From Thermoproteota archaeon (GTDB lineage Archaea > Thermoproteota > Nitrososphaeria_A > Caldarchaeales > Calditenuaceae): DNA of 64,000 bases. The stretch is from the NCBI GenBank assembly GCA_030550235.1, contig JAUQPU010000003.1, forward strand, positions 79,897-143,896, read 5' to 3'. The notes under the pieces were generated by a model. It worked only from the letters and a program-made list of their open reading frames with translations, was not told where the DNA came from and made no database searches. Both the position numbers and the translations under genes were made by a program. Shown here piece by piece: positions 1,750 to 62,229 of this stretch. Every line of letters begins with the position of its first letter. Position 1 is the stretch's first letter.

Positions 1750-2704
1750 GTGTCATCTTAATGAGCATGAGCTCCTTAATACTCTCGGTAGCTTTCGATA
1801 ATGTAGTGAAAAGCTCGTAGGCTCTGCAGTCTTCCAAAATCCTACCTGCTACAACCCCTCTCAGCTTATCTTCCACCCTCTCCAACGACTCATGGTCACC
1901 ACCAACAGCGTCTGTAAGCTCAGAGACAAGCTCGGCGAAAGTGCCGACCACGCTAGAAACATCTCCACCCCTAGTCGCGAATTCTTCAAAGGCGTCGCAG
2001 AGGTCGAGCATCCGGGCGGAGACTACGCCTGCGAGTGGAAGGGCCTGGATTACCAGGTCTCTTGAAGGCCTAGCTATCATTCCAGAGACGTGTCTAAAAA
2101 GGGCGAGGGCGTAAAGGCGGCAGTCAGCCAGCTCATCCTGTAGTGTTGAGGTCTCGCCCGAGCCAGTCTGCTTTGCCGCTGATTGGGCAGCAGAGGCCAG
2201 GGTCATCAAGAATACCCTGATGCCCTGCTCTAAACTTGCGAAGACCTCGTCAGAGAAGGATGCTAGAGACTCATGCTCGCTTGGCGCTGTCACTATGAGG
2301 CCGTGAATCTCCCTCCTCAGCCTTCTAAGCCTGCTCATCACCTGCTGGATAGGCTCTCGCGTCCTAAACCTTATCTGGTTCACACCAATTTTATACAGGA
2401 CCTTGGCCAAGTATTCCAGCCTCCTCTCGCCCACCACATCAAGCTCAACATCCACGGCAGTACCGCCGGCCCTCTCACTTGGGACAACTATCAGGAGTCC
2501 CGGGTCTGTGAGCAGGAGAACGCTTGCGCCCTTACCAAGCCCCTGCCCCTCAACCCAATCCTTCGGGAGAGTCAAGACATAGGAGCTCCCCCGAAGCTGC
2601 TGAAGTCTCCTCTCCTCAACCCTAGGCATGTATAACAATTCCTGCGCCAGCGTTATAACGCTTATCCCGATGAGAGCTGGAGTCCAAAGAAGGTCAAATA
2701 TCAT
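1739..2704 (-). CDS. AbrB/SpoVT-domain plus PhoU-domain regulator (archaeal phosphate-uptake-regulator-like), paralogue 1
   Basis: N-terminal swapped-hairpin motif GSSYVLTLPKDWVEGQGLGKGASVLL, followed by helical PhoU-like repeats. Same architecture as 10472..11521. Confidence 0.7.
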   Translation of the reverse strand: MIFDLLWTPALIGISVITLAQELLYMPRVEERRLQQLRGSSYVLTLPKDWVEGQGLGKGASVLLLTDPGLLIVVPSERAGGTAVDVELDVVGERRLEYLAKVLYKIGVNQIRFRTREPIQQVMSRLRRLRREIHGLIVTAPSEHESLASFSDEVFASLEQGIRVFLMTLASAAQSAAKQTGSGETSTLQDELADCRLYALALFRHVSGMIARPSRDLVIQALPLAGVVSARMLDLCDAFEEFATRGGDVSSVVGTFAELVSELTDAVGGDHESLERVEDKLRGVVAGRILEDCRAYELFTTLSKATESIKELMLIKMTLSV

Positions 2705-2800
2705 TTAACTGTGAAGAGAGCCCAATAGCCTCAGCTAGGCAGATATTAAGTTAGCTATCAGATCTAACAAACAATAAATCGAGTTACGGGTGGCCTGGGG

Positions 2801-2926
2801 CTATACCTCCTCTTCCTCTTCCCACTCCTCCTCTTCCTCTTCCCATTCCTCTTCTTCTTCCTCCCACTCTTCCTCCTCCTCGAAGTCTTCTTCCCACTCC
2901 TCTTCGGAGAACCTAATGTGGCTCAT
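2801..2926 (-). CDS. Candidate small hyper-acidic protein (41 aa), MSHIRFSEEEWEEDFEEEEEWEEEEEEWEEEEEEWEEEEEV
   Basis: Hand translation of the minus strand runs from ATG 2926 to TAG 2801. It is below the ORF-track cut-off. A TATA-like element lies 33-44 nt upstream. Confidence 0.4.
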   Translation of the reverse strand: MSHIRFSEEEWEEDFEEEEEWEEEEEEWEEEEEEWEEEEEV

Positions 2927-2958
2927 AGATCATCGTGCCATATGCTCGCTAATTCCCT

Positions 2959-2970
2959 GAATATAAAAGT
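2959..2970 (-). promoter_or_regulatory. TATA-like box (minus-strand ACTTTTATATTC) upstream of the small acidic ORF
   Basis: An A/T-rich octamer-like element at the distance expected for an archaeal promoter with a short leader. Confidence 0.35.
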
Positions 2971-3063
2971 ATTGTGAGCCAGTGGAACGACTTCTGTCCC
3001 AGAATTAAAGTTTTAACCCGTTTAATCGGTCCTATGAGCATTCCTCAGCGCCGTGAGCTGCGG

Positions 3064-3933
3064 TTAGTGCCACTCCCTCGGATATCTCCAGTCCGAGCCA
3101 TGTGACCTCGCGCTGAGCCTGAATATCTCGGGTAGCTGTCTCTTGTGCTGTGTCTGTTTTACCAGCCTCATCACCTTCTCTACAACCTCTATGTCGACTC
3201 CTAGGCGGGATGAGACCTCCTCCTCACTAAGCCAAGCGTCAAACCTTAGATAGAGTATGCTGTCTAGGAGTTCGTATGAGATTCCAAGCTCGGACTCGGC
3301 TGTCTGGCCTGGCCAGAGTGCGGGTGAGGGAGGCTTCACAACTATCTCCTCCGGGACCCCCAAGTATCTAGCGAGCTGTCTGACCTGGGTCTTGTAAAGG
3401 TCTGCGATTGGCATGACATCCACACCCGCGTCCCCATACTTTGTGAAGTATCCTATGGTCAGCTCAGACTTATCGCTTGTGCCTATGACTAGGCAGTCGC
3501 GCTTAGCCGCCTGTGCATGGAGGGTTATCATCCTAACCCGCGCCGCTATGTTACCAATTATAACCGGGCTGTCAACACCCAGCCTGTCTGCAAACATTCT
3601 GACTATGTCGTCGATGTTTATTATTTCATAGTTGCCCTCAGGTATATGAAGCATCTTAATTATGGACTGGGCATGCAGCATGTCACGCTGGGGCGTGGCC
3701 GATGTTGGGAGGATATAGCAAAAGAGTTTCTCTGGGCCCAATGCGCGGGCCGTGAGGTAGGCCGTTGTGGCCGAGTCTATCCCGCCGCTCAGGCCTATAA
3801 CCCCTCCCCGCTTACCTGCATACTCGAAGACATACCGTCTAAGCCTCTCACAAAGATAGCTGGCAACCCTCTCGGCATTGATCTCAAGCTCCTTGATCGG
3901 TAGGCCTATAGGGGTGGTTGTCTTTCCAGCCAT
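3064..3933 (-). CDS. nadE: NAD+ synthetase, synthetase (ATP-pyrophosphatase) subunit
   Basis: PP-loop GLSGGIDSA, and later SDKSELTIGYFTKYGD, typical of NadE. Confidence 0.9.
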   Translation of the reverse strand: MAGKTTTPIGLPIKELEINAERVASYLCERLRRYVFEYAGKRGGVIGLSGGIDSATTAYLTARALGPEKLFCYILPTSATPQRDMLHAQSIIKMLHIPEGNYEIINIDDIVRMFADRLGVDSPVIIGNIAARVRMITLHAQAAKRDCLVIGTSDKSELTIGYFTKYGDAGVDVMPIADLYKTQVRQLARYLGVPEEIVVKPPSPALWPGQTAESELGISYELLDSILYLRFDAWLSEEEVSSRLGVDIEVVEKVMRLVKQTQHKRQLPEIFRLSARSHGSDWRYPREWH

Positions 3934-5877: not shown

Positions 5878-7059
5878 TTAGTCTGCTTCCTCTTGGGCTT
5901 CCTTCTTCTTTGGTGCTACGGCTTTTGCGGTTGGCTTCTCTTCGTAAGGCCTGAACCTTGGCTTCAGTGTCTCTAGGATTGAGGGCAGAGTGGTGTATTC
6001 CATCTCCTCGTGGCCGAGGCGTGCAGGCTCGAACTCTCCCATAGTCCTCAGATACACAGCTATCTCGGCGGCCTTCTGCCTGACATAGTCCCAGAATGGA
6101 TCTGCGAAGAGGTCTGCAGGCTCCTCGCCGTCAATCCCCACCAACTTGCCGTTGCTTATCTGCCAGCCCATCGCAATAACCCTCGGCGGCCCGTCGAAGA
6201 ACGAGACAACGTTCTGCCCATTCTTGAAAGATACAGGCATCAGTGGCCCCCTATGGGAGCCCCTCATCCAGCCACTAACGATCGGCGGCACTGCGAAGGC
6301 GGCTAAGACCTCGCCAACAGCGGGGAAGCCGGCCTGAGCCCTCACTACGAGTACAGGGTCATCCTTGCCAACATAGCGTCCAGCTATCAAGCTGAGCCTC
6401 GTAGTGCTCGCTGCAGCGGCAGGCTCATTGTCTGCCGCCCTCCTCACACGAGCCACGGCATAGCGGCCAGGTGTCCCCAGAAGTCCAAGCAGCATGTAAA
6501 GCTCCTCAGGCGTCTTCAGCTCCACCACCTTGTTCTCATATAGGTCGAGGACCTCGAAGATGAAGCCCTTCTGCAGCTGCGGATCGATGACTAGGCCGGC
6601 TGTATTGTCGGGTGAGGCGAATATCCTATAAAGGGGTAGGTTCCAGGCCCCTGGCTCGGTCTTATCGGCTGCGAATACTATGACAGGGTCTGATCTCCTC
6701 TCCTCAAACTCTATCTCAGCAACACCGGGGCCAAGGCCTCTCACATTACCGCTGAAGGCATCGCTAAGCAGGTCCTGCCCAGCACCATAGAGCTTAAGGG
6801 GCTTCGCCACATTCTCTGTAATCTCCTTAAAGACTCTCCAGGCGAGCCCATGTATCTCGGCGTCGTTCTCACCCCTATTATGTGTCATGATGAGTATGAT
6901 GTCGTCCCCCGCGTGTGTCACGTATCCGCTGTTGATGAGACCTGTCGTCCTAGCCTCGGCCAGCTTCTTCTGTGCGTAGCGCAGCATCTCGTTGTGTGGC
7001 TTGTAGTGTCCTGAGACGCTTCCAACATCCGCCTTGATGACGGATAACGTGGTCTTCAA
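5878..7059 (-). CDS. fbp: Bifunctional fructose-1,6-bisphosphate aldolase/phosphatase (class V FBPase)
   Basis: The N-terminus MKTTLSVIKADVGSVSGH and the overall length are characteristic of the archaeal FBP aldolase/phosphatase. Confidence 0.95.
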   Translation of the reverse strand: MKTTLSVIKADVGSVSGHYKPHNEMLRYAQKKLAEARTTGLINSGYVTHAGDDIILIMTHNRGENDAEIHGLAWRVFKEITENVAKPLKLYGAGQDLLSDAFSGNVRGLGPGVAEIEFEERRSDPVIVFAADKTEPGAWNLPLYRIFASPDNTAGLVIDPQLQKGFIFEVLDLYENKVVELKTPEELYMLLGLLGTPGRYAVARVRRAADNEPAAAASTTRLSLIAGRYVGKDDPVLVVRAQAGFPAVGEVLAAFAVPPIVSGWMRGSHRGPLMPVSFKNGQNVVSFFDGPPRVIAMGWQISNGKLVGIDGEEPADLFADPFWDYVRQKAAEIAVYLRTMGEFEPARLGHEEMEYTTLPSILETLKPRFRPYEEKPTAKAVAPKKKEAQEEAD

Positions 7060-7193
7060 CTTGTTTTTCTACCTCTTTTTCAGCTCTCTAACGAGAGCGG
7101 CTCAATTTTAGGATTCACCCAAGCAACGGCGCCTAATAGCCAAGAATAGGGGGCGATACACTCATTTACCAACCATTTAGCTCTAAATAGGTT

Positions 7194-8210
7194 GTGAAGG
7201 CGGTAGTCCTAGAGCGTTATGGCCCTCCTGAGGCCCTCGAGTACAGTGATATAGCCGATCCTGTTCCAGCGGAGGGGGAGCTGCTGGTTAAAGTGGCCGC
7301 ATCAGGTGTCAACAGGGTGGACGTGTGGATTAGAACGGGGAAGTATCAGGTCAAGCTTCCCCACATATTGGGCGTCGACATTGCGGGTGAGGTCATCTCG
7401 TCGACGGTGCCTCAGGTCAAGAAGGGTGAGCGGGTGGTGCTTTTCCCCGACATGCCCTGCGGCAGATGCAGATACTGCCTCACCGGTCGCTTCCAGCTCT
7501 GCAAGAACAGCTCAAGGCTCGGCTCCTCCCGCTGGGGAGGATATGCGGAGCTGGTAACCGCTCCTGCACAGACGGCCATACCTATCCCCAGCGGCATGAG
7601 CCTTGAGGAGGCTGCCGCGCTCCCAGTCAACTACTCCACTGCGTGGAGGGCCTTGGTCACCGATGCTGGAGTCCGGCCAGGGATGCGTGTCCTTGTGGTA
7701 GGTGGGAGTAGTGGTGTGGGTGTTGCGGCGACGCAAATTGCAAGGCTCGCGGGTGCAGAGGTGATATCTGTGGTGGGGAGCGACTGGAAGGAGGAGAAGG
7801 CCTACAAAGCTGGTGCGAGCTTTGTAGTAAACCGGGCCAAGAAGGATGTTGTCGAGGAGGTTTCGAAGCTGACGAGCGGCGATGGCGTGGATATCGTCTT
7901 AGAGATGGCTGGAACCGCCTTTTGGGAAAAGGCACTACAATGCCTCGCACCAGGCGGCGTACTGGTTACTGTGGGCGCCACCACGGGAGACCAGGTCTCA
8001 TTCAACGTGAGACCATTCTATAGAAAGTATCAGAGAGTAATTGGAAGCGGCATGGGCACCCAGGGCGAGTTCTTTAGGATAGTCGAGCTGGCGGCTCAGG
8101 GAAAGCTCCGCCCAATAATCGATAAGGTCTTCAGCCTCAAGGAAGCGTCTGAGGCGCATAGGAGGCTGGAGGCCGGAGAGCACTTTGGGAAGATATTGTT
8201 GAAGCCGTGA
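7194..8210 (+). CDS. Zinc-type alcohol dehydrogenase / quinone oxidoreductase (MDR superfamily)
   Basis: GroES-like N-terminal domain containing CGRCRYC, and Rossmann motif VVGGSSGVGVAATQIA. Confidence 0.85.
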   Translation: MKAVVLERYGPPEALEYSDIADPVPAEGELLVKVAASGVNRVDVWIRTGKYQVKLPHILGVDIAGEVISSTVPQVKKGERVVLFPDMPCGRCRYCLTGRFQLCKNSSRLGSSRWGGYAELVTAPAQTAIPIPSGMSLEEAAALPVNYSTAWRALVTDAGVRPGMRVLVVGGSSGVGVAATQIARLAGAEVISVVGSDWKEEKAYKAGASFVVNRAKKDVVEEVSKLTSGDGVDIVLEMAGTAFWEKALQCLAPGGVLVTVGATTGDQVSFNVRPFYRKYQRVIGSGMGTQGEFFRIVELAAQGKLRPIIDKVFSLKEASEAHRRLEAGEHFGKILLKP

Positions 8211-9079
8211 AAACTCTGGAGAAGCTTTCGGAGATAGTATTTGACAGGCAGAGCGGCTCATCACAGATAGCAGCGCGACTCCTAAACCACCTCGAGGCTG
8301 CCACGCTGGAGATAGAGGCGGGCCAAGTCGGAAATTTTTTAGAGGAGGCCTACGCCGCCGTTCTCAGGCGGAGAAGCCTCATCTCTCCCATAAACTTGGT
8401 CGATGCGTTGCGGAGGGCCTACAGCCTCTTACTGGAAGAGAAAGGGGCCCAGCCAGACTTGCGGATGATGATAAGACGCCTGCGAGGGATGTATCTGACG
8501 TCTCTCGAAGTAGCTTTAAAGATAGCAGGAGGAAGGCTTGCTGGATGCGAGAGGATACTTACATTGAGTAAGAGCTCGCAGGTGGTCTCTGCCTTGAAGC
8601 GGGTTGTGGGGGTGGAGGCCAGGGTCCTGGCGGGCTGGCCACTGATGGATGGACTTGCAGCCTACAGAGATCTCAGGGCCTCAGGCGTTAGAGCCATCCT
8701 CTTCCCCGATCTCTCGGTCTTTGAAGCGGTACGAGAAGTTGACGCGTTATTGATAGGATGTGACGCGGTGCTTCCAGATGGCTCAGCCGTAAATAGGTCT
8801 GGCTCAAGGGCTGCGGCGCTAGCCGCCCAAGAAATGGGAGTCCCTACACTCGTAATCTGTGACTCGTCTAAGCTCGACATAAACAACCTCTGGGCCCCTG
8901 AGGAGTGGGGCCTGGAATTGGAGGGGGCGGCAATAAGGTTCCAGGTCTTCGAGAAGGTCGACAGAGGCCTGGTCACGGAGTATGTCTCGGAGCATGGCTG
9001 TCTATCACCCTCCTCCTTCGTCGATGTGGCCGGTGGCGAGATACTCTCTTGGCCGAGGAGACTTCTCCAACAGGAGTGA
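8207..9079 (+). CDS. eIF-2B alpha/beta/delta-family protein (sugar-phosphate isomerase family: aIF2B / MtnA / ribose-1,5-bisphosphate isomerase-like)
   Basis: The C-terminal core GCDAVLPDGSAVNRSGSRAAALAAQEMGVPTLVICDSSKL is typical of the family. It overlaps the upstream gene by 4 nt. Confidence 0.7.
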   Translation: MKTLEKLSEIVFDRQSGSSQIAARLLNHLEAATLEIEAGQVGNFLEEAYAAVLRRRSLISPINLVDALRRAYSLLLEEKGAQPDLRMMIRRLRGMYLTSLEVALKIAGGRLAGCERILTLSKSSQVVSALKRVVGVEARVLAGWPLMDGLAAYRDLRASGVRAILFPDLSVFEAVREVDALLIGCDAVLPDGSAVNRSGSRAAALAAQEMGVPTLVICDSSKLDINNLWAPEEWGLELEGAAIRFQVFEKVDRGLVTEYVSEHGCLSPSSFVDVAGGEILSWPRRLLQQE

Positions 9080-28448: not shown

Positions 28449-28856
28449 TTGCTGTTTGTCGTGTTGAGTCCAGAAGGGCTTGACGCTGCGCTTTGGACAC
28501 TGCTGCTTTACCTTCTCCTAACAATAGTTGCTCCGCCTATATTCTATCTTGTCTCTGTCCTAATCGCTCCCAAGAAGCCATCCCGTGTCAAGAGGATGCT
28601 CTTCGAGTCAGGCCAGACACCAATACCTGTCAGGACAACCCCATTCCCCATAGAATACTTCCCCTACGTCATCATCTACATTGCGTACGCAGTCTTTGCA
28701 GTCATCGCCTTCATAGTCGTCTTAGACATGTTGAGGGCTGGTGAGAGCCTGGTCCGTGGGCTGATAATTCTCGCAGCAATCACTGCGGGGTCAATCTATG
28801 CGTCAACCCAGCTTCCCACTTTGAAGCAAAGGCTAGAGAAGGGTGCTGCAAGTTGA
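28449..28856 (+). CDS. nuoA: NADH-quinone oxidoreductase (complex I) subunit A
   Basis: Three TM helices with the loop motif FESGQ (YECG-type). It overlaps nuoH by 4 nt. The TATA-like TATAAAT at about 28433 suggests a leaderless start at GTG 28461. Confidence 0.75.
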   Translation: MLFVVLSPEGLDAALWTLLLYLLLTIVAPPIFYLVSVLIAPKKPSRVKRMLFESGQTPIPVRTTPFPIEYFPYVIIYIAYAVFAVIAFIVVLDMLRAGESLVRGLIILAAITAGSIYASTQLPTLKQRLEKGAAS

Positions 28857-29923
28857 TAGACCCAATCCAGCCCTTCGTCCAGATGTATAACTCCCTCCCC
28901 CCCATGTTGCAGGAGCTGGTTCGCTTCCTCTATAGCGAGCCATTCATCAAGGCTGCCATCTTCCCCGGCGCGCTCTTCAGCACACTGCTAGGCATGTTTG
29001 CAGTCTGGTTTGAGAGGAAGCTCTTCGCCCGCATCTCACTCAGGATAGGACCACTACACGTTGGAAAGGTTGCCGGAATTCTGCAGCTGATAGCCGACGC
29101 AATCAAGTTCCTCTCTAAGGAGAGGATAATACCCGAGGGAGTCAATAGGCCGTTATTCGTCCTCATGCCCTGCTTGGCGCTTGTCCTATCGCTTCTCCTC
29201 TATGCCTTCCTCCCATTCGGGGCTGGCTGGATAATTTATCCCTCAGAGATTGGCCTCCTTCTATTCTTCCTTGTGGCAGCATTATCACCAGTGCCGATAG
29301 TCCTAGCAGGCTACGCATCGAGGAGCAAATACCCATTTATAGGGATGTCGAGAATCGCTCTCCAGCTCTTCGGATACGAGGTGCCCCTCTTCCTAGCCTT
29401 GACAGGTGTCGTCCTATCTACGAGGACGTTGAATCTGGAGAAGATAGTCGAGGCGCAGGTGAGAGTCCCGCTCGCCGTAGCACAGGTAATAGGTTTCGTA
29501 GTTTTCATGATTACATTGTTGGCTGAGACTGAAAGGCTTCCCTTCGATATACCGACTGCTGAGGGTGAGATCGTTTTCGGCTGGCAGACTGAGTATTCAG
29601 GAGTCTACTTCCTCATGATTCAGCTAGCGATGTTTGAGAAGGTCCTGGCCTTCTGTTTCCTAGGCGCAGTACTCTATCTCGGTGGCTGGCTAGGCCCCCC
29701 AATACCCGGGCTCCCCGAGACACTCTCCGCGCCCTTCTGGATAATACTCAAGGCCCTCATACTATTCACACTTGTAGCCCTTCTACGCGGGGTCTATCCG
29801 AGGCTGACGATTGAAAAAGTCCTCGACCTAGGTTGGAAATATCTCATCCCGCTCGCTTTCGTGAATCTAATCATAACGGCGGGGACATCACTCGTCGCAG
29901 GGGCCCTGACAATTACGTTCTAA
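28853..29923 (+). CDS. nuoH: NADH-quinone oxidoreductase subunit H
   Basis: ERKLFARISLRIGPLHVGKVAGILQLIADAIKF is the canonical NuoH/ND1 signature. Confidence 0.9.
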   Translation: MIDPIQPFVQMYNSLPPMLQELVRFLYSEPFIKAAIFPGALFSTLLGMFAVWFERKLFARISLRIGPLHVGKVAGILQLIADAIKFLSKERIIPEGVNRPLFVLMPCLALVLSLLLYAFLPFGAGWIIYPSEIGLLLFFLVAALSPVPIVLAGYASRSKYPFIGMSRIALQLFGYEVPLFLALTGVVLSTRTLNLEKIVEAQVRVPLAVAQVIGFVVFMITLLAETERLPFDIPTAEGEIVFGWQTEYSGVYFLMIQLAMFEKVLAFCFLGAVLYLGGWLGPPIPGLPETLSAPFWIILKALILFTLVALLRGVYPRLTIEKVLDLGWKYLIPLAFVNLIITAGTSLVAGALTITF

Positions 29924-29969
29924 AGACCCGCTGAATGGTTTATCAAAAACTCCTATACTCGAGAATCTA

Positions 29970-30479
29970 TTGGATTTGGAGGTCCCTGAGGAGCGTATCC
30001 GGGTCTTCTTCGAGATGGAGGAGCGGTATAGGGAGCATGACGCCGAGTTTTTTAGGAGACTTCTTAAGCATCCGGACCTCACCATCAGGGCTCGGGCCAC
30101 ATGTATCCTCGCTGAGATAGGTGGGCGCGAATACATAAGAGAGCTGGCTGAGGTCCTTCTGCACGACGAGAATCCGATAGTGCGGCATGAGGCAGCCTAC
30201 TCTCTTGGGCAGCTGGGCTACCGAGATGCCATTCCATACCTTCTACAGTCCTTAAAGACAGACCCCCATCCAATAGTCCGCCACGAGTCGGCGATAGCTT
30301 TGGGCGTAATCGGGAGCGATGAGGCCCTACCCGGCCTGCTGGAAGCTCTGAATGACGAGTCGCAGGAAGTTATAGACTCGGCGGTCATAGCCATAAGCAA
30401 CATAGTGTTCTGTAGGCGGCTATTCGGTGTTTCGAGGGACGAGGTGGCCTCCGAGTTTGCGCGTAAGACCGGGGGCTGA
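29970..30479 (+). CDS. HEAT-repeat protein resembling one half of deoxyhypusine hydroxylase (two His-Glu motifs)
   Basis: NPIVRHEAAYSLGQLGYRDAIPYL and HPIVRHESAIALGVIGSDEALPGL repeats. The track start is TTG 29970 and an alternative ATG lies at 30015. Confidence 0.7.
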   Translation: MDLEVPEERIRVFFEMEERYREHDAEFFRRLLKHPDLTIRARATCILAEIGGREYIRELAEVLLHDENPIVRHEAAYSLGQLGYRDAIPYLLQSLKTDPHPIVRHESAIALGVIGSDEALPGLLEALNDESQEVIDSAVIAISNIVFCRRLFGVSRDEVASEFARKTGG

Positions 30480-32040: not shown

Positions 32041-32973
32041 TTACTGGCCAAGCTTGGCCCTGAGCCAGCCGTATAATGCGTCTATGGGGTTTGTCGAGGG
32101 TGGGTTTGTGGAGATCTTCGGGCCTGCCAGCATGGAGGGGTTGTAGACTAGGCCTTGGCGGGAGATTGATGAGAGCTCCACGTCGGGTGTCATCTCGAGG
32201 GCGTAGAATGGGCAGGCGTCGACGCAGAAGCCGCAGAAGACGCATCTACCATAGTCAACTTGTGGGAAGTAGGACTTCTTGTTCTGTGGATATTTGAGGT
32301 CGCGCTTCTGTATAGTTATCCTCACACTACAGCCATCCTTACTTGCTCCATACACCACAGCGTCTGGAAACTTGTCTTCCAGCATGGTGAAGCTCCATCC
32401 CCTCTCTCCTAGCCTGCCGAATGGCTCGTCGAGATAGTTACTATAGAGTGTGGCGGAGTTGTGCTCCCATATCGCGTCAACGTTCAGTCTTATCGATACC
32501 TTGCCATCGGCCTTGGCCGCCCTCTTCAAATCAACGACGTGCCCTAGGAGGGGGTGTGACCCACCTACCCCGTATCCAGGCTCGACAAGGGGCTTGACGA
32601 ACCCTTCTACAACCTGGCTGAGAAGCTCTGACAAGACGCCTCTCCCCGAGGCGAGCTCGTTATAGTCCTTCTCCTCCACCTCTACAGTCACGTCAAACGC
32701 ATAAACCATTGTTATGGCCTCAGATATGTTCTGGCAGGCTATGTCGCAGAGGCTGCAGCCTGTGCATTTCTCAAGTATGAGGAGGTGCCTGCCCTTAAAG
32801 CCCGGGTAGGCGAACCCCTGCTTAGGGTCAAACCTGTAGTTTTCACTGGGGAGGTTAGGTATCTCCTCATATGGATACTTGTAGGTGTAGGGCTTGAAGA
32901 ATACATGCCTAGCGGCTACCCATATCGGTCTTAGAATCTCTCTAAGCAGAGTGGCTGCGGACATCTGTGCCAC
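32041..32973 (-). CDS. nuoI: NuoI-like 2x[4Fe-4S] ferredoxin subunit with a large insertion between the two cluster motifs
   Basis: CTGCSLCDIAC (residues 70-80) and CVFCGFCVDACP (residues 244-255) with NuoI-like flanks (GRH...LEKC; YALEMT). Confidence 0.7.
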   Translation of the reverse strand: MAQMSAATLLREILRPIWVAARHVFFKPYTYKYPYEEIPNLPSENYRFDPKQGFAYPGFKGRHLLILEKCTGCSLCDIACQNISEAITMVYAFDVTVEVEEKDYNELASGRGVLSELLSQVVEGFVKPLVEPGYGVGGSHPLLGHVVDLKRAAKADGKVSIRLNVDAIWEHNSATLYSNYLDEPFGRLGERGWSFTMLEDKFPDAVVYGASKDGCSVRITIQKRDLKYPQNKKSYFPQVDYGRCVFCGFCVDACPFYALEMTPDVELSSISRQGLVYNPSMLAGPKISTNPPSTNPIDALYGWLRAKLGQ

Positions 32974-33886: not shown

Positions 33887-36322
33887 ATGTCAGGAGTTAG
33901 CAGAAGGGACTTTATGAGGGTGGTATCAGCCACCGCTGCTGCCAGTGCTATAGGCTCACTCATCGCAGCGCCGAGAGATGCTCTTCTCAGCCTACAGACA
34001 GACGTACTGCAAGCTAGGTCTGACTATAGGTTCGTTGAAGATAGCTGGGTGACGAGCACGTGTCTGCAGTGCCCAGCCGGATGCGGGATAGCTGTGCGGG
34101 TAACAGGGGGAAGGGCTGTCAAGATAGAGGGTAATCCTCTCCACCCAATTAACAGGGGCTCAATATGCCCCAAGGCACACTATGGTCTCCAAATACTATA
34201 CGACCCTGATAGAATCACGGGGCCTCTCGTCAGAGTGGGCGAGAGAGGTAAAATTGAATTTAGAGAGGTTAGCTGGAGGGAGGCCATCGACCTAGTTGCT
34301 TCAAGACTCTCTGAGTTGCGTCGTGCCGGAACACCTGAACGTTTTGTCTGGCTTGAAGGCAGGGTTCGAGGCAACATGGGCGACTTCATCTCGAGGTTTA
34401 CGACTGCCTTTGGAACACCAAACCGTATAGGTCATAGTAGTATTTGTTCTGATGGTGCGGTAATTGCGCATTACCTTATGCAGGGTGTCAAACATTATCT
34501 AGGCTATGACTGGCAAAACACCAACTATCTGCTTCTCTTCGGGGCAGGCTTCATAGAAGCATGGAGGCCGACAGTGAGACTTCTTAGAAGCTATGGCCAC
34601 ATTAGGGGTGAGAGGCCTGTGAGGGCCAAGATAGTTGTAGCAGATGTAAGATATTCAACTACTGCCAAGAAGGCGGACGAGTGGATTAGGATAAGGCCTG
34701 GTACTGACGGAGCCTTAGCGCTCGGAATAGCACATGTGATAATCAGAGACGAACTATATGACAGGGAGTTCGTCGAGAACCACACATACGGTTTTGAAGA
34801 ATTTGCAGAGACGGTCCTCTCCAAATATGGAGTGGAATGGACTGAGAAGGTTACCGGCGTTTCTACCGAAACTATTGAAAGAGTAGCCCATGAATTCGCG
34901 ACGACTAAGCCCGCTATCGCCGCCGGTCAGCGCGGTGCTATGATGCAGCCCAACGGCGTCTATAGCTACATGGCTATCCACGCCCTGAACGCGCTAGTCG
35001 GAAGCATAGGTAAAAGAGGTGGTGTGATCGCGCAGAAGTCGCCACCTTTCAAAAAATGGCCGGAATTTAAGCCTGACGAGGTCGCTGGGGAGGGGCTGGC
35101 TAATATGCGCATAGACTACGCTGGGACAGAGAGGTATCCATTTGCGAAAAACGTGTATCAGCAGGTGGCCGAGTCGGTCGTTGAGGGAAGACCCTACCCA
35201 GTAGAGGTTTTGATGATCTACTACACTAACCCGGCATTCTCATCCCCCAACGTGGCCTTGTGGGAGAAAGCTTTAGAGAAGATACCGTTCATAGTTAGCA
35301 CCTCTCCATTCATGGACGAGACAACAGCCTACTATGCGGATGTGGTCCTACCTGACCACACATATCTCGAACGCTGGATGGATGACGTAATCTACCCAAG
35401 CCTCGGCTACCCCGTTGCCTCAATACGCCAGCCCGTCGTTAAGCCTCTCTACAATACCGCGAATACAGGGGACGTGATAATAGAGTTGGCGAAGAGGGTT
35501 GGTGGCGCCGTAGCTGATGCTCTTCCGTGGAATAGTTTTGAGGAGGTTATCAAGTTTAGATGGAGCGGGATATGGGAGAGCGGGCGTGGAAAGGTTGGCC
35601 CCGTTCCTGTATCCCGAATGAGTAGTTTTGAAGAATTCTGGGCTAATGTGTTGAAGTATGGTTTCTGGGCAGATCCGCCTTACATCTTTGAAGACTACAA
35701 ACATGAGTTACAGACAAAGACGGGAAAGTTCGAGTTTCACTCTAAAACCCTCGAGGAGAAGCTGAATAGTCTCGCCCAGAAAATCGCAAAAGAGAAGGGG
35801 GTAGAGTTTGACCAGGCATATGAGACGTTGCTGGATAATCTAAACATCAAGGCAAGAGGGGCAGAGGTTTTCATACCACATTATGAGGAGCCAGAATTCG
35901 CCGGGGACGCATCCCAATACCCCTTCATCCTAATTACATACAAGTCGATAATGCATGCAGAGGGGAGAGGGACAAACTCTCCTTGGGCTTTAGCCAGTTT
36001 TGGGCCACACGTCAGGATGGGCTGGCGTAACTGGGTGGAGATTCATCCAGAGACTGCCAAGCAGCTCGGTATAAGGGATGGTGAGTTGGTCATGGTCGAG
36101 TCGCCTGCGGGAAGTTTGATTACCGTGGCGAAGATACATCCGACTTCAGTGCCTGAGGTCGTGGTCATGCCTTTTGGAATAGGTCGGAAGGCCTATGGTA
36201 GGTGGGCATCGAAGACGGGAACGAATGTCAACAACATCCTCATCGAGAGGCGGGAAAGGTTGTCTGGCTCGGCTGGTTTCTCATCGACACGTGTCAGGAT
36301 TACAAAGTGGGGTGGTGCCTGA
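33887..36322 (+). CDS. Tat-exported molybdopterin oxidoreductase catalytic subunit A (polysulfide/thiosulfate/tetrathionate-reductase-like)
   Basis: Twin-arginine signal SRRDFMRVVSATAAASA, FS0 motif CLQCPAGCG...C, and MopB-family length (811 aa). Confidence 0.9.
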   Translation: MSGVSRRDFMRVVSATAAASAIGSLIAAPRDALLSLQTDVLQARSDYRFVEDSWVTSTCLQCPAGCGIAVRVTGGRAVKIEGNPLHPINRGSICPKAHYGLQILYDPDRITGPLVRVGERGKIEFREVSWREAIDLVASRLSELRRAGTPERFVWLEGRVRGNMGDFISRFTTAFGTPNRIGHSSICSDGAVIAHYLMQGVKHYLGYDWQNTNYLLLFGAGFIEAWRPTVRLLRSYGHIRGERPVRAKIVVADVRYSTTAKKADEWIRIRPGTDGALALGIAHVIIRDELYDREFVENHTYGFEEFAETVLSKYGVEWTEKVTGVSTETIERVAHEFATTKPAIAAGQRGAMMQPNGVYSYMAIHALNALVGSIGKRGGVIAQKSPPFKKWPEFKPDEVAGEGLANMRIDYAGTERYPFAKNVYQQVAESVVEGRPYPVEVLMIYYTNPAFSSPNVALWEKALEKIPFIVSTSPFMDETTAYYADVVLPDHTYLERWMDDVIYPSLGYPVASIRQPVVKPLYNTANTGDVIIELAKRVGGAVADALPWNSFEEVIKFRWSGIWESGRGKVGPVPVSRMSSFEEFWANVLKYGFWADPPYIFEDYKHELQTKTGKFEFHSKTLEEKLNSLAQKIAKEKGVEFDQAYETLLDNLNIKARGAEVFIPHYEEPEFAGDASQYPFILITYKSIMHAEGRGTNSPWALASFGPHVRMGWRNWVEIHPETAKQLGIRDGELVMVESPAGSLITVAKIHPTSVPEVVVMPFGIGRKAYGRWASKTGTNVNNILIERRERLSGSAGFSSTRVRITKWGGA

Positions 36323-37137
36323 TGGTCCGGTGGGGTATGGTTATAGACTTGGATAAATGCACAGCCTGTCAAGCGTGCGTCGTAGCATGTAAAGCCGAGA
36401 ATAATATACCGATAGGTAGTGAAGCTGAGCAAGCGGCTGGCCGTCAAATCTCTTGGATGGACTTAATAGTTAAAAATTCTGAGGGGAGGGTCGCTATGCT
36501 CCCAAGGCCCTGCATGCACTGTGACAACCCTCCATGCGTCCAAGTTTGCCCAGTAGGCGCAACATTCAGGCGCGAAGATGGGATAGTGGATCAAGACTAT
36601 AACAGATGCATCGGATGCAGGCTCTGCATGGTCGCCTGCCCCTATGGTGTCAGATACTTCAACTGGCGTGAACCATCATGGCCGGACACCTATCTGGAGT
36701 ATCTCAATCCGACCGTGCCAGTAAGGCCTGCGGGGGTTGTAGAGAAATGTACTTTCTGTGTCCACAGAATTACACGTTTAAAGAGAGACATAAGTACTGG
36801 AAATGTCCCAACGGCCATAGCCAAGGTCACCAAGAACAATATGAGCCTAGAGGAGAAAACCAGTAAAGCCGTGGATACCCTAATGCGGAGACTTATCATG
36901 AAAAGTGACGAGGTTGAGAGAGCGGATCCAGAGGATTTGTGGATCGACTTCGACTTCAGAGAACTCAACTACCTGCCGTCATGTGTCAGAAGCTGCACCG
37001 GTAGAGCACTAATATTCGGAGACCTTGACGATCCAGAGAGTTTGGTTTCGCAGATGGCTAAAAGTAAGAGGGCTTTTAGACTGTTTGAGGAGCTGGGCAC
37101 AAATCCGAAGGTGATATATCTCCAGGAGGGGAGGTAG
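36322..37137 (+). CDS. 4x[4Fe-4S] electron-transfer subunit B (PsrB/NrfC/DmsB family) with an internal insertion of about 60 aa
   Basis: CTACQACVVAC, CMHCDNPPCVQVCP, CIGCRLCMVACP, and CTFC...CVRSC. ATG 36322 overlaps the subunit A stop by 1 nt. Confidence 0.9.
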   Translation: MVRWGMVIDLDKCTACQACVVACKAENNIPIGSEAEQAAGRQISWMDLIVKNSEGRVAMLPRPCMHCDNPPCVQVCPVGATFRREDGIVDQDYNRCIGCRLCMVACPYGVRYFNWREPSWPDTYLEYLNPTVPVRPAGVVEKCTFCVHRITRLKRDISTGNVPTAIAKVTKNNMSLEEKTSKAVDTLMRRLIMKSDEVERADPEDLWIDFDFRELNYLPSCVRSCTGRALIFGDLDDPESLVSQMAKSKRAFRLFEELGTNPKVIYLQEGR

Positions 37138-38682
37138 ATGGAGGTAGGTTATAACAAATACTATAACCCCGGCGGCTTCAGCAGAATAGCATACGCCACT
37201 CTGGGAATATTGATAATCGTGATTGCTCTGGCTTTGCATGCGTGGCTTCAGCAGTTGACACAGGGGCTGGCTGTCACAGGTCTTAACAGGCCTGTCGTCT
37301 GGGGGATTTACATGGCTAATTTCGTCTTCTTCATAAGCATAAGCATGTCGGGGACTTTCATCTCATCTGTTATGAGGCTGCTCAGCCTAGAATGGGGCAA
37401 ACCGATAACTAGGATAGCTGAAGTCATAACTGTTGGAAGCCTCCTGATGGCCGCCCTTAACATATTGTTCGATGTGGGAGGGCTCTTCCGCGCCCTCATC
37501 TACATACCCCTCTTTGGCAGGATACAGTCGCCCGTCGGATGGGACGTAATCGTCCTTCTCTTCTATCTTCTCACAGGCCTAGGCTATCTACACGTAGCGC
37601 TTATACCCGATATAGCGGTCATGGCGGGGAAGGAGAGCCGTTTTTCATGGCTCTATAGTCTGCTACGTTATGACTGGCGGGGAGATAAAGACCAGCTCCA
37701 CCTACTTGAGTCAGGGCTTAAAATCCTCGCAATAGTGACAGTGCCAGTTGCGGTGATGATGCACACTGTTACCGGCTGGATATTTGGCGGGATGAAGGCT
37801 GTCTCAACATGGAATGACGCAATCATGGGCCCATACTTCATAATAGGCGCGCTTCTGTCAGGGTTGTCTCTCGTCATAATAACCTCGGCCATTATCAGAT
37901 GGAGATTCGCTCTCCACGAAGTAATCCCCGACAGAACATTCATTAACTTGGGAAAGATGCTCTTGGTCTTCTTGCTTGGCTATCTCTACTTTATGCTAGC
38001 AGAGACATTCACCGTCAGGTACGCGGCTGTATCTGAAGACATTAGAGTCTCAGAGTTTTCATGGACTGGGCCGTATAGCCCTCTAACATGGTATGTGTTA
38101 GCCTCTCTTGTAATAGCTAGTGTTGTTTTGCTTATACCGAGGCTAAGAACCTATAAAGCGGTTATTGCCATGTCTGCGGCGGTCCTCCCAGCCATGTGGG
38201 TTAAGAGAGTGTTAATAGTTTTGCCGGGGCTGATTCACCATGACAGTCTCCCGACAGTTCAATCAGCCCTCCCCCAATATACGCCTACATACGTGGAGTT
38301 TTTGCTCACTGCAGGCTCTTTCGCAGGTCTCGCACTGATTCTATTGTTGTTTGTAAAGCTATTCCCAGTCCTTCCAGTCTGGGAGGTTTTCGGGGTGCAG
38401 AAAACCAAAACCGAGCCAACTACAAACATCTCGCTTCGCGCTGTCCTAACCGGGTGGATGTCAGGAATATTAATCACCACAGCTTACGTAGCTGTATGGG
38501 CTGCATCAACTATTATATTCGCAGGAGAAAACTCGGCGGTAACTTACTCTGTCAAGCTCGCCCCAACAGCTATTCAGGTTCTATCCATACCAGAACTCGC
38601 CACGACAGCTATGTTCAACCTCCTAATCATAGTTGCACTGGCAGGCGTTTTAGCCATATTGTTTGTTAGAAGAAGAGGCTGA
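37138..38682 (+). CDS. NrfD/PsrC-family integral membrane quinol-interacting subunit C
   Basis: Starts 1 nt after the subunit B stop. Many TM helices and an NrfD-like N-terminal region. Confidence 0.8.
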   Translation: MEVGYNKYYNPGGFSRIAYATLGILIIVIALALHAWLQQLTQGLAVTGLNRPVVWGIYMANFVFFISISMSGTFISSVMRLLSLEWGKPITRIAEVITVGSLLMAALNILFDVGGLFRALIYIPLFGRIQSPVGWDVIVLLFYLLTGLGYLHVALIPDIAVMAGKESRFSWLYSLLRYDWRGDKDQLHLLESGLKILAIVTVPVAVMMHTVTGWIFGGMKAVSTWNDAIMGPYFIIGALLSGLSLVIITSAIIRWRFALHEVIPDRTFINLGKMLLVFLLGYLYFMLAETFTVRYAAVSEDIRVSEFSWTGPYSPLTWYVLASLVIASVVLLIPRLRTYKAVIAMSAAVLPAMWVKRVLIVLPGLIHHDSLPTVQSALPQYTPTYVEFLLTAGSFAGLALILLLFVKLFPVLPVWEVFGVQKTKTEPTTNISLRAVLTGWMSGILITTAYVAVWAASTIIFAGENSAVTYSVKLAPTAIQVLSIPELATTAMFNLLIIVALAGVLAILFVRRRG

Positions 38683-47382: not shown

Positions 47383-47453
47383 CACTAATGTAAATGCGTG
47401 GATATGGATCAAATCAGCTATTTATTATGGTTGGCAGGTGGCTCGAGGTGAAC

Positions 47454-48905
47454 ATGGAGATACAGACGCTGAGCCCGCTTATACTTTCTATCGCCCTCCC
47501 GCTAGGTTTCTCACCCATAGTAGCCCTCTTCGGCAGACTATTACACCCACGCAGCGCGGGTGTATTCGCTACGAGTATACTCTTCTTCCCCATGCTTTTC
47601 GGCTTCCTGCTGTATCCAGCCATAAACAGCGGCGCGGTCGTGGAGGAGAGGCTAAGCTGGATTCCGGAGCTCGGCCTCACATTCACTCTTAGGCTGGACC
47701 AGCTTAGCTATCCCTTCTACCTGCTGATTACTTTGGTGGGCTTTCTATCTACCTTCTATTCTCTGAGGTATATGGAGCATGAGAAGGGGCTCGGCTCCTA
47801 CTACTCACTGACCATGATGTTTATCACGGGGATGATCGGTGTCGTCCTTTCCACAAACCTTTTCCTATTCTACATTTTCTGGGAGCTGATGCTCATCCCA
47901 AGCTACTTTCTGATAGCCTACTGGGGGACTGGGAACGCTCGGATAATAGGCTTCAAGTACTTCGCCATGACGCATGTCGGGGCCATATCTCTCCTAGCCG
48001 GGATCGTCTGGCTCAACTCTCTCTATGGGAGTGTGGAGCTTGATGTCCTTCGCCTAATCCTTGAAGGAGGATCGCCGGCAATGCTTGGCATAGCCACCCT
48101 CATATTCATAGGCGCGGCGGTTAAGATGGCGCTCTTTCCACTCCATACCTGGCTTCCCGACGCCCACGCAGAGGCCCCCACACCTATAAGCGTCTTACTT
48201 AGCGGCGTGATGATCAAGACCGGAGTGTACGCCTATGCTAGGATAATTGGTGGGCTTATGCCTGCTGCTTTTCAGCAGGCCTTACCTGTTGTCTTGCCGC
48301 TCTCGGTTGTGACTGTTTTTTGGGGTGGGATGATGGCGCTGGTTCAGACGGATATTAAGAGGATACTTGCCTACAGTTCTATCAGTCAGATTGGCTACAT
48401 GGTCTTCGGCCTCTCCGTCCAGTCCAGCATCGGCTTGACAGGTGGCCTCCTACATGTCGTGACGCACGGCCTTGCCAAGTCTCTCCTCTTCATGGCTGCG
48501 GGCTCAATAATGCACTCGGCTGGGGAGAGAGACATAACTAAGCTGGGAGGGCTCATGAGGCCCATGTGGTTTACCGCCTCTGTCTTCCTCATCGGCGGGC
48601 TATCCATAGCCGGGACACCACCCCTCGCAGGCTTCTTCAGCGAGTGGATGATCTTCGCAGGCGGCTTCCAGGCTAACATCATGTCCTACACCATACTGGC
48701 CATACTCGGCACGGCGCTGACACTAGGATACTATCTCAAGGCCTTCATGTACATCTTCACCAGGGGTGAGCCCCGCGCCGCTATCAAAGAGTCACCAATC
48801 AGTATGGCGGCACCGATGGCCATACTCGCTGTAGTCATAATCCTGGCAGGGATCACCACGCCTCCTATAACAGGCATCATCAACATGGCCGTTGCCAAAC
48901 AGTAA
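47454..48905 (+). CDS. nuoM: NADH-quinone oxidoreductase antiporter-like subunit M (NuoM/ND4 family)
   Basis: LFYIFWELMLIPSYFLIAYWG and downstream conserved Lys/His-containing helices. ATG 47454 is preceded by GAGGTG. Confidence 0.85.
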   Translation: MEIQTLSPLILSIALPLGFSPIVALFGRLLHPRSAGVFATSILFFPMLFGFLLYPAINSGAVVEERLSWIPELGLTFTLRLDQLSYPFYLLITLVGFLSTFYSLRYMEHEKGLGSYYSLTMMFITGMIGVVLSTNLFLFYIFWELMLIPSYFLIAYWGTGNARIIGFKYFAMTHVGAISLLAGIVWLNSLYGSVELDVLRLILEGGSPAMLGIATLIFIGAAVKMALFPLHTWLPDAHAEAPTPISVLLSGVMIKTGVYAYARIIGGLMPAAFQQALPVVLPLSVVTVFWGGMMALVQTDIKRILAYSSISQIGYMVFGLSVQSSIGLTGGLLHVVTHGLAKSLLFMAAGSIMHSAGERDITKLGGLMRPMWFTASVFLIGGLSIAGTPPLAGFFSEWMIFAGGFQANIMSYTILAILGTALTLGYYLKAFMYIFTRGEPRAAIKESPISMAAPMAILAVVIILAGITTPPITGIINMAVAKQ

Positions 48906-61099: not shown

Positions 61100-62229
61100 A
61101 CGGCTCGGAGCTTTTTAGCTTTAACCTCCTCGGGATAGCTGTGCTAATACATATCGCTTTCGTGAACATCACAATGGGGACTGGATTTATCTCGGCCATG
61201 GCCCGTTTCCTAGCATGGCGTCGAAGCGACCCGGGCCTTGAAATTATGTCGCGGCGCGTCTTCAAGATACTGATAGTTCATGAATTGTTCAGCGGGGTCT
61301 GGGGGACCGTCATCACCGTTGTTCTAGCCGCATTTTTCCCCACACTTCTAGCCATAGCAGTCGATGTCATGTTCTTCCCATTACTCATCGCATTGTCAGC
61401 TATCATAATAAGAATTCCGACCATAGCGCTTTTCTGGTATACGTGGGGTAAAGTGGAACCGCGCATCCACTCCGTCATAGGCTTTGTAATGGCCTTGTCA
61501 GGCTTCGCCGTGCCTATGGGCTTCAGATACATCTTCGCAGAGATAACCTATCCGCATGGGGTAAGCCTCGCGCTACAAAACCTGAAAGATGCTGCAAGGC
61601 TAGAGGTGTTCACCAACCCACTTTACCCACCGTTGATTCTCCATACATGGGCTGGCGCGCTCTCAATCGGCGGATTCATAACCGCGTCCTTCTTCACAAT
61701 CAAAGGCAACCTCTCGCCGAAATTTCTGTGGATAGGACTGTGGCATGGGGTCATCTTCCTTGCCGTACAACCGTTCATAGGCCTCTGGTATCTGACATCC
61801 CTAGGAACCTACGCGCGCGTCATATACAATAACGTTCTAGGCACAGTACATGCGACATTCAATCTTCTGCCTATGTTTGGTTTGAAGATCGCGGCTTTCG
61901 CCGGCCTCGCGGTCTTTTCGGCGCTGGTTTGGAGAAGGGTTAAGCGAGGGGAAGGCAGTGCCCCGCGTTACGCTCTCGTCCTCGGGCCCCTGGCGATGCT
62001 GATAGTGCTGGTCGGAGAGCTAATTAACGACGCCGGAAGATACCCCTTCCTCGTCTTACTCGGAGACACTGGTTTGCCGCCTTCTGTTTTCTCAAACCTT
62101 TACATCCAAATCCCATATCCACTGGTCCTAGCTATCCTCAGCGGTCTCGTTGTCTTCCTCTTCGGGTTTATGCTGACAGTTTACTACGCCCTCAACAAAC
62201 GGTTCCTGGTAGACCTGCCTGAGGTTTAA
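61096..62229 (+). CDS. Cytochrome bd-family oxidase subunit II, apparently a CydA paralogue (CydA'-type) rather than canonical CydB
   Basis: 4-nt overlap with cydA. Its N-terminus LGIAVLIHIAFVNITMGTGFISAMARFLAW parallels subunit I LGIYLHAFFVSVTLGFPIMISALLYAWW. Confidence 0.7.
   Translation: MNGSELFSFNLLGIAVLIHIAFVNITMGTGFISAMARFLAWRRSDPGLEIMSRRVFKILIVHELFSGVWGTVITVVLAAFFPTLLAIAVDVMFFPLLIALSAIIIRIPTIALFWYTWGKVEPRIHSVIGFVMALSGFAVPMGFRYIFAEITYPHGVSLALQNLKDAARLEVFTNPLYPPLILHTWAGALSIGGFITASFFTIKGNLSPKFLWIGLWHGVIFLAVQPFIGLWYLTSLGTYARVIYNNVLGTVHATFNLLPMFGLKIAAFAGLAVFSALVWRRVKRGEGSAPRYALVLGPLAMLIVLVGELINDAGRYPFLVLLGDTGLPPSVFSNLYIQIPYPLVLAILSGLVVFLFGFMLTVYYALNKRFLVDLPEV

Follow-up and report, generated by a model that had tools for sequence, protein, structure and literature searches.

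A single-arm homologue of deoxyhypusine hydroxylase in Aigarchaeota and ammonia-oxidising archaea

Translation factor 5A carries hypusine, a modification that is both unique and essential. Papers published from 2012 to 2021 stated that deoxyhypusine hydroxylase (DOHH), the eukaryotic enzyme of the last step, is absent from archaea or that no archaeal orthologue had been identified, and reviews up to 2021 called the archaeal hydroxylation step unsolved (PMC3306375, PMC5178350, PMC6105217, PMC8153317). The question of who might perform this step is raised anew by a 64,000-nucleotide stretch of a Thermoproteota archaeon of the Calditenuaceae (contig JAUQPU010000003.1, positions 79,897 to 143,896; hereafter the window), where a gene located 46 nt downstream of nuoH codes for a small HEAT-repeat protein with two His-Glu (HE) motifs. 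The original prediction considered it as one half of a DOHH and as a candidate for the missing archaeal hydroxylase. Our results provided good support for the first part: the window protein is a single-domain (half-size) DOHH homologue. As to its function, homodimeric di-iron hydroxylation of deoxyhypusine on archaeal initiation factor 5A (aIF5A) appeared as the best explanation and a moderately probable one, based on homology, one natural fusion and a patchy gene linkage. The open reading frame (ORF), with its TTG start, its 169 codons and its coordinates (Table 1), was as first described; peptides TIRARATCILAEIGG, LLHDENPIVRHEAAYSLGQLGYRDAIPYLLQSL and KTDPHPIVRHESAIALGVIGSDEALPGLLEAL were all found in its translation, and the codons confirmed HE dipeptides at residues 73-74 and 105-106. 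The human DOHH contexts LLKHELAYCLGQ and MVRHEAGEALGAIG given in the original prediction were correct as well, the sequence used here being 100% identical to PDB entry 4d4z over residues 1-289.

Relatedness to the eukaryotic enzyme was observed for both of its arms. BLASTP aligned residues 33-153 of the window protein with residues 18-137 of human DOHH (34% identity, E 6e-15) and residues 40-142 with residues 175-277 (38% identity, E 6e-14). H73/E74 were thereby placed on human H56/E57 and H207/E208, H105/E106 on H89/E90 and H240/E241, and G80 on G63/G214. Mutagenesis by the Park laboratory reportedly tied human Glu57/Glu208 and Gly63/Gly214 to deoxyhypusine binding; E74 and G80, which occupy these positions, were invariant when 26 relatives of the window protein (46-78% identity; Aigarchaeota and Nitrososphaeria) were aligned, which is also the basis of the statements below on invariant residues of the half-size family. 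The iron-coordination sites of the human enzyme are His56, His89, Glu90, His207, His240 and Glu241 (PMC3306375). When the PDB was searched by sequence, human DOHH (4d4z) was the best natural match, with 92 bits over two stretches (E 3.7e-25), followed by Rpn2 (41 bits), YibA (32) and CpcE (25).

Conservation of the motifs was equally clear. H73, E74, G80, H105 and E106 were all invariant, together with the flanking VRHEA..SLGQ and VRHE.A..LGVIG, and two VRHE motifs were displayed by 117 of the 120 best-listed relatives (identity down to 46%). In the alignment, the HE pair was kept in 26/26 members. For comparison, 1485 repeats of the ...[VILM][RK]xx....[AS]LG type were collected from 146 giant generic HEAT_PBS proteins. 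Only six of them (0.4%) displayed HE at the position following V-R, where SS, RA, RS, EA and AA dominated, in agreement with the original remark that generic repeats of the phycobilisome (PBS)-lyase type lack HE there. The HE pair of the window protein is far beyond chance. The copies of Pfam and NCBIfam that were used contain no DOHH-specific model. A hidden Markov model (HMM) was built from the half-domains of 21 eukaryotic DOHHs (42 in all). With it, the 118 full-length members of the family all scored 75.5-91.3 bits (83.1 for the window protein) and the full-length DOHH-like proteins of DPANN archaea presented below 77-83 bits, versus at most 60.8 bits (median 40.8) for the best segments of the 146 giant proteins. 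Alignment of the HE pairs with both arms, invariance of the iron-ligand and substrate-binding positions and these scores together bore out the view of a half-size DOHH homologue.

At the level of the fold, the AlphaFold2 (AF2) model of the window protein (pLDDT 93.1, pTM 0.88) displayed paired helices, consistent with an all-alpha arm of four HEAT repeats. Foldseek against the PDB gave the highest query TM-score to 4d4z_A (0.71; root-mean-square deviation 2.5 A over 137 columns). Orthologues measured 160-172 aa and covered 96-100% of the protein. Since a single arm with two HE motifs is contained in these 160-172 aa, the window protein was classed as a half-size variant and not as a canonical DOHH. 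Besides the two motif-bearing repeats, invariant residues were Asp36, Arg40, Arg42 and Cys45 in repeat 1, and D129, V134, S137, A141 and N144 in repeat 4. Repeat 3 aligned with human MVRHEAGEALGAIG (H89/E90) and MVRHECAEALGAIA (H240/E241). The N-terminal helices displayed a family-specific invariant Met16-Glu17 ("EME") and Phe28. At the other extremity, TGG (codons 30468-30476, residues 167-169) terminated 117 of the 120 best-listed members and was preceded by F-[AST]-[KR]-x; the tail was modelled with pLDDT values of 68-74 across the last two 10-residue blocks. As a matter of speculation, the C-terminal diglycine might serve as a partner-docking or active-site tail, and the loose resemblance of KxTGG to the hypusine loop KTGKHG might hint at a pseudo-substrate.

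The family was found to be a regular component of two archaeal groups. When each GTDB species was represented by one genome, the scan returned at least 541 relatives, and the best 80, which were looked at, all belonged to Nitrososphaeria or Aigarchaeota. Nearest relatives occurred in Caldarchaeum and other Aigarchaeota (65-99% identity), followed at about 50% identity by Nitrosopumilus, Nitrosotenuis, Nitrososphaera, Nitrosocaldus and Nitrosomirales. Essentially every ammonia-oxidising archaeon has the half-size gene, as do Aigarchaeota. Eight of the 120 best-listed members already carried the JGI label "deoxyhypusine monooxygenase", NCBI using "HEAT repeat domain-containing protein". With these labels, and with full-length forms bearing four HE motifs in DPANN archaea and Heimdallarchaeota (see below), the premise that archaea have no homologue was outdated at the database level. 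The supposed link to hypusine-containing Crenarchaeota received no support: no Sulfolobales or Thermoproteales name was seen among the matches listed (best 80 of at least 541 genome matches; best 120 proteins). An O2-dependent di-iron enzyme could not serve Thermoproteus or Pyrodictium, both of them strict anaerobes, and the half-size gene alone would not explain hypusine in anaerobic Crenarchaeota. The modification was chemically shown in both genera as well as in Sulfolobus and Acidianus (PMC5178350). As to the window itself, it encodes a cytochrome bd-type oxidase (59525-62229, + strand), which makes exposure to O2 plausible. Ammonia oxidisers are obligate aerobes, and the ubiquity of the family among them renders an O2-dependent role plausible.

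Gene linkage to deoxyhypusine synthase (DHS) was recorded in a few aigarchaeal genomes. In archaeon HR01 (L008) a divergent DHS-like paralogue is located 75 bp from the half-size gene (7998-8498), and a bona fide DHS (NF002294 384 bits, cutoff 350; GGGISKHH) 1.1 kb from it. Five Caldarchaeum species have their DHS on the opposite side of the half-size gene, at a distance of 5-7 kb. At the HR01 locus two DHS-family genes (5982-7922), the canonical one and a paralogue of the PRK00805 type (GGGVPKD; 401 bits, which is under the cutoff), stand tail to tail directly beside the half-size gene, and a LOG/TIGR00725 gene and a Dps-like ferritin follow. The linkage is informative in two cases: HR01, where the genes are directly adjacent, and the only fused member of the family, which is surrounded by an operon-like cluster.

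This fused member, P0125, is encoded by an 18-kb metagenome contig (L081), probably from a DPANN archaeon; the nearest named relative of its DHS comes from a Nanoarchaeota/DPANN archaeon. Its single ORF of 363 aa contains two complete copies of the family domain with four VRHE motifs and ends in ...FARLIGG, the IGG being kept at the true C-terminus only. The two halves were 57% identical to each other, 57-60% to the Nitrosopumilus protein and 50-60% to half-size members, and both nested inside the half-size clade (99% bootstrap). Since they are this similar and nested in this clade, P0125 was interpreted as a recent duplication-fusion of a half-size gene, which is what would be expected for a protein working as a homodimer. 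Its AF2 model (pLDDT 85.4, pTM 0.84) superposed on the whole of human DOHH 4d4z with a TM-score of 0.79 (normalised by DOHH length, 306 columns), versus at most 0.5 for eight-repeat alphaReps, YibA, importins and Rpn2.

The P0125 gene is preceded, on the same strand, by genes for DHS (PF01916; NF002294 323 bits), a pyridoxal phosphate-dependent decarboxylase, N-carbamoylputrescine amidase (246 bits) and agmatine deiminase (312 bits), and this DHS/agmatine-to-putrescine/P0125 cluster is flanked by two IF5A-like genes (Table 1). One encodes only the IF5A N-domain (TIGR00037 30.7 bits, residues 123-184, loop KAGKHGGPKV), behind an acidic low-complexity extension of about 120 residues; in the loop of the other (KTGKQGHIKI) His is replaced by Gln. 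Neither is a canonical aIF5A, and they could be dedicated substrates or decoys. Next to one of them lies a gene (2480-3727, - strand) for a gamma-butyrobetaine/trimethyllysine-dioxygenase-like Fe(II)/2-oxoglutarate oxygenase (TIGR02409 278 bits), followed by cyclic-nucleotide-binding proteins, a gene set unusual for a presumed DPANN archaeon.

With one arm per chain, a di-iron site would require a homodimer. In the mechanism that we propose, each subunit of the dimer would hold one iron site made of His73, His105 and Glu106 (human His56/His89/Glu90), and Glu74 and Gly80, the equivalents of human Glu57/Gly63, would hold the aminobutyl-lysine side chain. The two concave faces would meet to form an O2-activating di-iron centre converting deoxyhypusine to hypusine on aIF5A. 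That two copies could rebuild a site of four HE motifs received indirect support from the modelled DOHH-like dyad of P0125, encoded in a DHS cluster, and from the adjacency to DHS in HR01.

Several observations weigh against this proposal. In the reverse test, made with an HMM of the family, DOHH halves scored 57-75 bits and generic segments as much as 89, so that the two did not separate and the signal is specific to DOHH in one direction only. The P0125 dyad is not independent evidence, since the multiple sequence alignment behind its model contained real DOHHs. Linkage to DHS is patchy: no DHS was found near the half-size gene in the window (64 kb), in its closest relative (L001), in 71 Nitrososphaerales/Nitrosopumilales loci or in three other aigarchaeal lineages, and among the roughly 85 species inspected chance alone would place about one DHS within 8 kb. 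Neither aIF5A (by its GKHG loop) nor DHS was found when the window was searched for them. Conversely, an HE-bearing HEAT gene lay within 8 kb in 0/80 metagenome loci carrying the closest relatives of the L081 DHS. The literature searched contained no chemical evidence for hypusine on aIF5A of Nitrososphaeria or Aigarchaeota, and Aigarchaeota are described as strict or facultative anaerobes (PMC6053391). Finally, the EME helix, Cys45 and the C-terminal TGG are invariant yet not encountered in DOHH, so that the function may differ from that of DOHH.

This last point also speaks for the most probable of the alternatives, although we consider it distinctly less probable than the proposal: a DOHH-related metallo-oxygenase, either a di-iron dimer or a mononuclear monomer, acting on something other than deoxyhypusine-aIF5A, such as some other side chain (lysine-derived or carrying a polyamine modification), a small molecule or a ribosomal protein. 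This reading would fit the lack of DHS or aIF5A linkage in most lineages, as well as the nature of the IF5A-like genes flanking P0125, which are paralogues reduced to the N-domain. Neighbours were moreover related to iron or redox and not to translation, with Dps/ferritin and NifU_N genes in two aigarchaeal lineages and a redoxin-like gene in Nitrosopumilales. On the other hand, conservation extended beyond the metal ligands to the equivalents of E57/E208 and G63/G214, to which substrate binding is reportedly ascribed, and the sole operon-level associations found were with deoxyhypusine synthase. Furthermore, DOHH has no other known substrate (PMC3306375, PMC8153317).

A non-catalytic HEAT scaffold or adaptor of the PBS-lyase/alphaRep type, with HE residues serving binding or structure only, is an improbable reading. 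It has in its favour that the Pfam matches of the window protein, HEAT_2 (PF13646; 86.8 bits, cutoff 27.7) and HEAT_PBS (PF03130; 61.9 bits, cutoff 20.9), pass the gathering thresholds of generic families that designate a repeat type and name no function. Likewise, the top PDB sequence matches overall, and the strongest Foldseek E-values, were to consensus-designed alphaReps, the best NCBIfam match was NblB, and more than 100,000 HEAT proteins were matched by the family profile. However, NCBIfam scores were far under their cutoffs (NblB 38.9 versus 300, CpcE 23.5 versus 330, CpcF 16.1 versus 220, CpeY 21.7 versus 600), and alphaReps are idealised consensus sequences that superposed poorly (about 7.5 A, versus 2.5 A for DOHH). 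In generic repeats the HE positions are among those that vary most, whereas here they are invariant, and with the DOHH half-domain HMM the gap between the family and generic HEAT proteins was at least 15 bits. Archaea are not known to have phycobiliproteins, which also counts against this reading. An exhaustive search of 1.84 billion representatives with the family profile matched 103,676 proteins, and the top 150 were almost all multi-repeat HEAT proteins above 900 aa. Since the HEAT_PBS class is enormous, whole-protein E-values are no evidence of specific kinship, and the search, swamped by giant proteins, is no guide to phyletic distribution; it nonetheless revealed P0125. The giants (P0121-P0269) consist nearly entirely of HEAT_PBS repeats and reach 7,989 aa, with up to 34 separate matches to the 163-position profile.

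The weakest alternative, a very improbable one, is that the protein assists or helps to assemble respiratory complex I and is co-expressed with nuoA-nuoH. The window gene does follow these two genes closely on the same strand, as in L001, and the gene of a NuoI-like ferredoxin is found on the opposite strand, 1.6 kb downstream. However, the neighbours are altogether different in Caldarchaeum, in HR01, in three other aigarchaeal lineages and in 71 loci of Nitrososphaeria, and a possible TATA-like element, centred about 26 nt upstream of the start, would point to a separate promoter and to a leaderless mRNA.

Full-length archaeal relatives also speak for the proposed hydroxylation of deoxyhypusine by the half-size protein. 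Searches with P0125 and P0280 uncovered about 70 clusters of two-arm proteins of 265-300 aa in DPANN-type archaea, and a small second full-length group including a protein of 244 aa (P0458) from a Heimdallarchaeota metagenome-assembled genome (Table 1). In these searches they ranked beside or above eukaryotic DOHHs. The four HE motifs and both glycines were invariant across the DPANN and Heimdallarchaeota forms and the human, yeast and red-algal DOHHs. Genes for the NOG1 GTPase and PCNA were found as neighbours, and neither DHS nor aIF5A was found near the full-length genes in the contexts of the loci inspected (L086, L167-L170, L177). In four DPANN loci, the NOG1-type GTPase gene was convergent with the full-length gene.

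A neighbour-joining tree of half-domains (106 columns, 300 bootstraps) grouped the half-size family with the P0125 halves (99%) and eukaryotic N- and C-halves with each other (86%), and separated half-size plus eukaryotic sequences from those of DPANN plus Heimdallarchaeota (93%). Neither all N-halves nor all C-halves ever came together (0% each). This topology suggests lineage-specific duplications of a single-arm ancestor; the tree needs confirmation since it was obtained by a simple distance method, and the short alignment behind it had been fitted to an HMM derived from eukaryotes. A wider scenario, which we put forward tentatively as less probable than not, is that Nitrososphaeria, both ammonia-oxidising and aigarchaeal, make genuine hypusine by means of a homodimeric single-arm DOHH representing the ancestral state, and that the two-arm enzyme was fused several times, in eukaryotes, in DPANN/Heimdallarchaeota and recently in L081. 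If so, the domains of eukaryotic DOHH would be specifically related to a TACK-type half-size gene, the last step of hypusination would be archaeal in origin, and the view of DOHH as a eukaryotic invention would be overturned.

Neighbourhoods of half-size genes are otherwise diverse and lineage-specific (Table 1). The order nuoA-nuoH-HEAT was common to the window and L001 only among the loci inspected; adjacency to nuoH was rejected as a functional clue since it was not conserved beyond these two. In two aigarchaeal lineages (L171/L172, the P0020 lineage, and L008), iron-related genes were observed, with NifU_N directly upstream and ferritin/Dps two genes downstream, which may lend weak circumstantial support to a metalloprotein.

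Table 1. Features of the half-size DOHH-like gene and protein, with neighbouring genes and related loci. Residue numbers are those of the 169-aa protein.
Feature	Sequence or locus	Position	Strand	Remarks
nuoA	Window	28449..28856	+	PF00507
nuoH	Window	28853..29923	+	PF00146, 304 bits; 46-nt gap to HEAT gene
Possible archaeal TATA-like element, tttatcaaaaa	Window	29939..29949	+	Centre ~26 nt upstream of TTG start; read from sequence
Half-size DOHH-like HEAT protein gene	Window	29970..30479	+	TTG start; stop codon 30477-30479; 169 aa; from ORF list and sequence
N-terminal capping helices, residues 7-31	Window	29988..30062	+	Model helices H7-21 and H25-31; no counterpart in DOHH
HEAT repeat 1, residues 36-65, TIRARATCILAEIGG	Window	30075..30164	+	Aligned with human DOHH repeats 1 and 5 (QARFRALFTLRGLGG, ERYRAMFALRNAGG) by BLASTP
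HEAT repeat 2, residues 66-97	Window	30165..30260	+	V71-R72-H73-E74-A75 and S78-L79-G80-Q81 invariant in 26/26 aligned members
First His-Glu, H73-E74	Window	30186..30191	+	cat gag; equivalent of human H56/E57; H73 predicted Fe ligand, E74 predicted anchor of substrate amino group
HEAT repeat 3, residues 98-127	Window	30261..30350	+	V103-R104-H105-E106 and L111-G112-V113-I114-G115 invariant
Second His-Glu, H105-E106	Window	30282..30287	+	cac gag; equivalent of human H89/E90 and H240/E241; both predicted Fe ligands
HEAT repeat 4, residues 128-154, NDESQEVIDSAVIAISNI	Window	30351..30431	+	Aligned with human DOHH SSDPVIEVAETCQLAVRRL; BLASTP, model
C-terminal tail, residues 155-169	Window	30432..30476	+	Invariant F163...T167-G168-G169; no such tail in DOHH
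IF5A-like gene flanking P0125 cluster	L081	3857-4522	-	
IF5A-like gene flanking P0125 cluster	L081	10222-10902	-	
Nitrosopumilales neighbourhood, highly conserved	L010-L080			L15e, small membrane protein, divergent AhpC/redoxin-like gene (53 loci), HEAT, optional gene without Pfam match, Rad50-Mre11-HerA-NurA
Caldarchaeum neighbourhood				Sua5, Cgi121, ThiS/Urm1-like gene, HEAT, then carbon monoxide dehydrogenase/xanthine dehydrogenase (CODH/XDH) cluster
Three further aigarchaeal lineages				NifU_N-HEAT-LOG-ferritin, or HAD-HEAT-beta-CASP-PolB
Full-length DOHH-like proteins	L086, L167-L170			P0280, P0296 ("Nanoarchaeota archaeon"), P0301, P0303, P0336, P0447, P0451, P0456
Full-length DOHH-like proteins, second group	L177			P0458, P0457, P0460

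Other genes of the window deserve a brief mention. The NuoI-like 2x[4Fe-4S] ferredoxin (32041-32973, 310 aa) is encoded on the - strand, opposite to nuoA-nuoH, and its cluster motifs, at about residues 64-88 and 236-259, are separated by an insertion of about 150 residues. The nuo genes appear scattered, a NuoL/M/N-type antiporter subunit being located at 47394-48905. In the bd-type oxidase pair, the second ORF (377 aa) also matched subunit I (PF01654, 62.9 bits) and not the subunit II model. The region 33887-38682 (+ strand) codes for a molybdopterin oxidoreductase (811 aa, with an N-terminus that reads as Tat-signal-like), a 4Fe-4S subunit and a membrane subunit of the NrfD type, pointing to a putative operon for a Psr/Ttr/Nrf-like complex iron-sulfur molybdoenzyme and to a capacity for anaerobic respiration beside the bd oxidase.

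No published report of these archaeal DOHH homologues was found in a search that left out most subscription journals, so that a prior report is possible. Judging from their sequences, the half-size gene and its full-length archaeal relatives would run counter to the often-made statement that this enzyme is missing from archaea. A single-arm homologue in ammonia oxidisers and Aigarchaeota, to which the full-length DPANN and Heimdallarchaeota forms add, makes the hydroxylation question directly testable in cultured organisms. If active as a homodimer, the protein would offer a minimal, thermostable model of an unusual HEAT-repeat di-iron oxygenase and would record the path from a homodimer to a symmetric enzyme with two arms.

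Among known systems, PBS-lyase HEAT proteins (CpcE/CpcF, NblB, E. coli YibA) and alphaReps, the latter being consensus proteins derived from archaeal HEAT-like repeats, share with the window protein the HEAT_2/HEAT_PBS assignment, the 31-residue repeat and the ...VR..AA.ALG.IG... consensus. They differ by the absence of His-Glu pairs, and the window protein scored 8-13 times below the cutoffs of the NCBIfam lyase models. P0125 differs from half-size members by its two domains in one chain and by a hydrophobic N-terminal extension of about 42 residues. The full-length DPANN and Heimdallarchaeota forms are archaeal, display the same HE, LG and G signature, and some of them carry the JGI label "deoxyhypusine monooxygenase"; they are, however, two-arm single chains like the eukaryotic enzyme, are only 23-34% identical to the window protein and form a separate clade. 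Eukaryotic DOHH (human, PDB 4d4z/4d50; yeast Lia1; EC 1.14.99.29) has in common with the window protein the HEAT fold, two His-Glu motifs per four-repeat arm in the contexts xxKHExAYxLGQ and xVRHExxxALGxIG, the conserved equivalent of Gly63/Gly214, and 34-38% identity to either arm. It consists of two arms in about 300 aa, with eight repeats and four HE motifs in a symmetrical dyad, whereas the window protein has a single arm and no inter-arm linker, and its family adds the N-terminal EME helix pair, the invariant Cys45 and the invariant C-terminal TGG.

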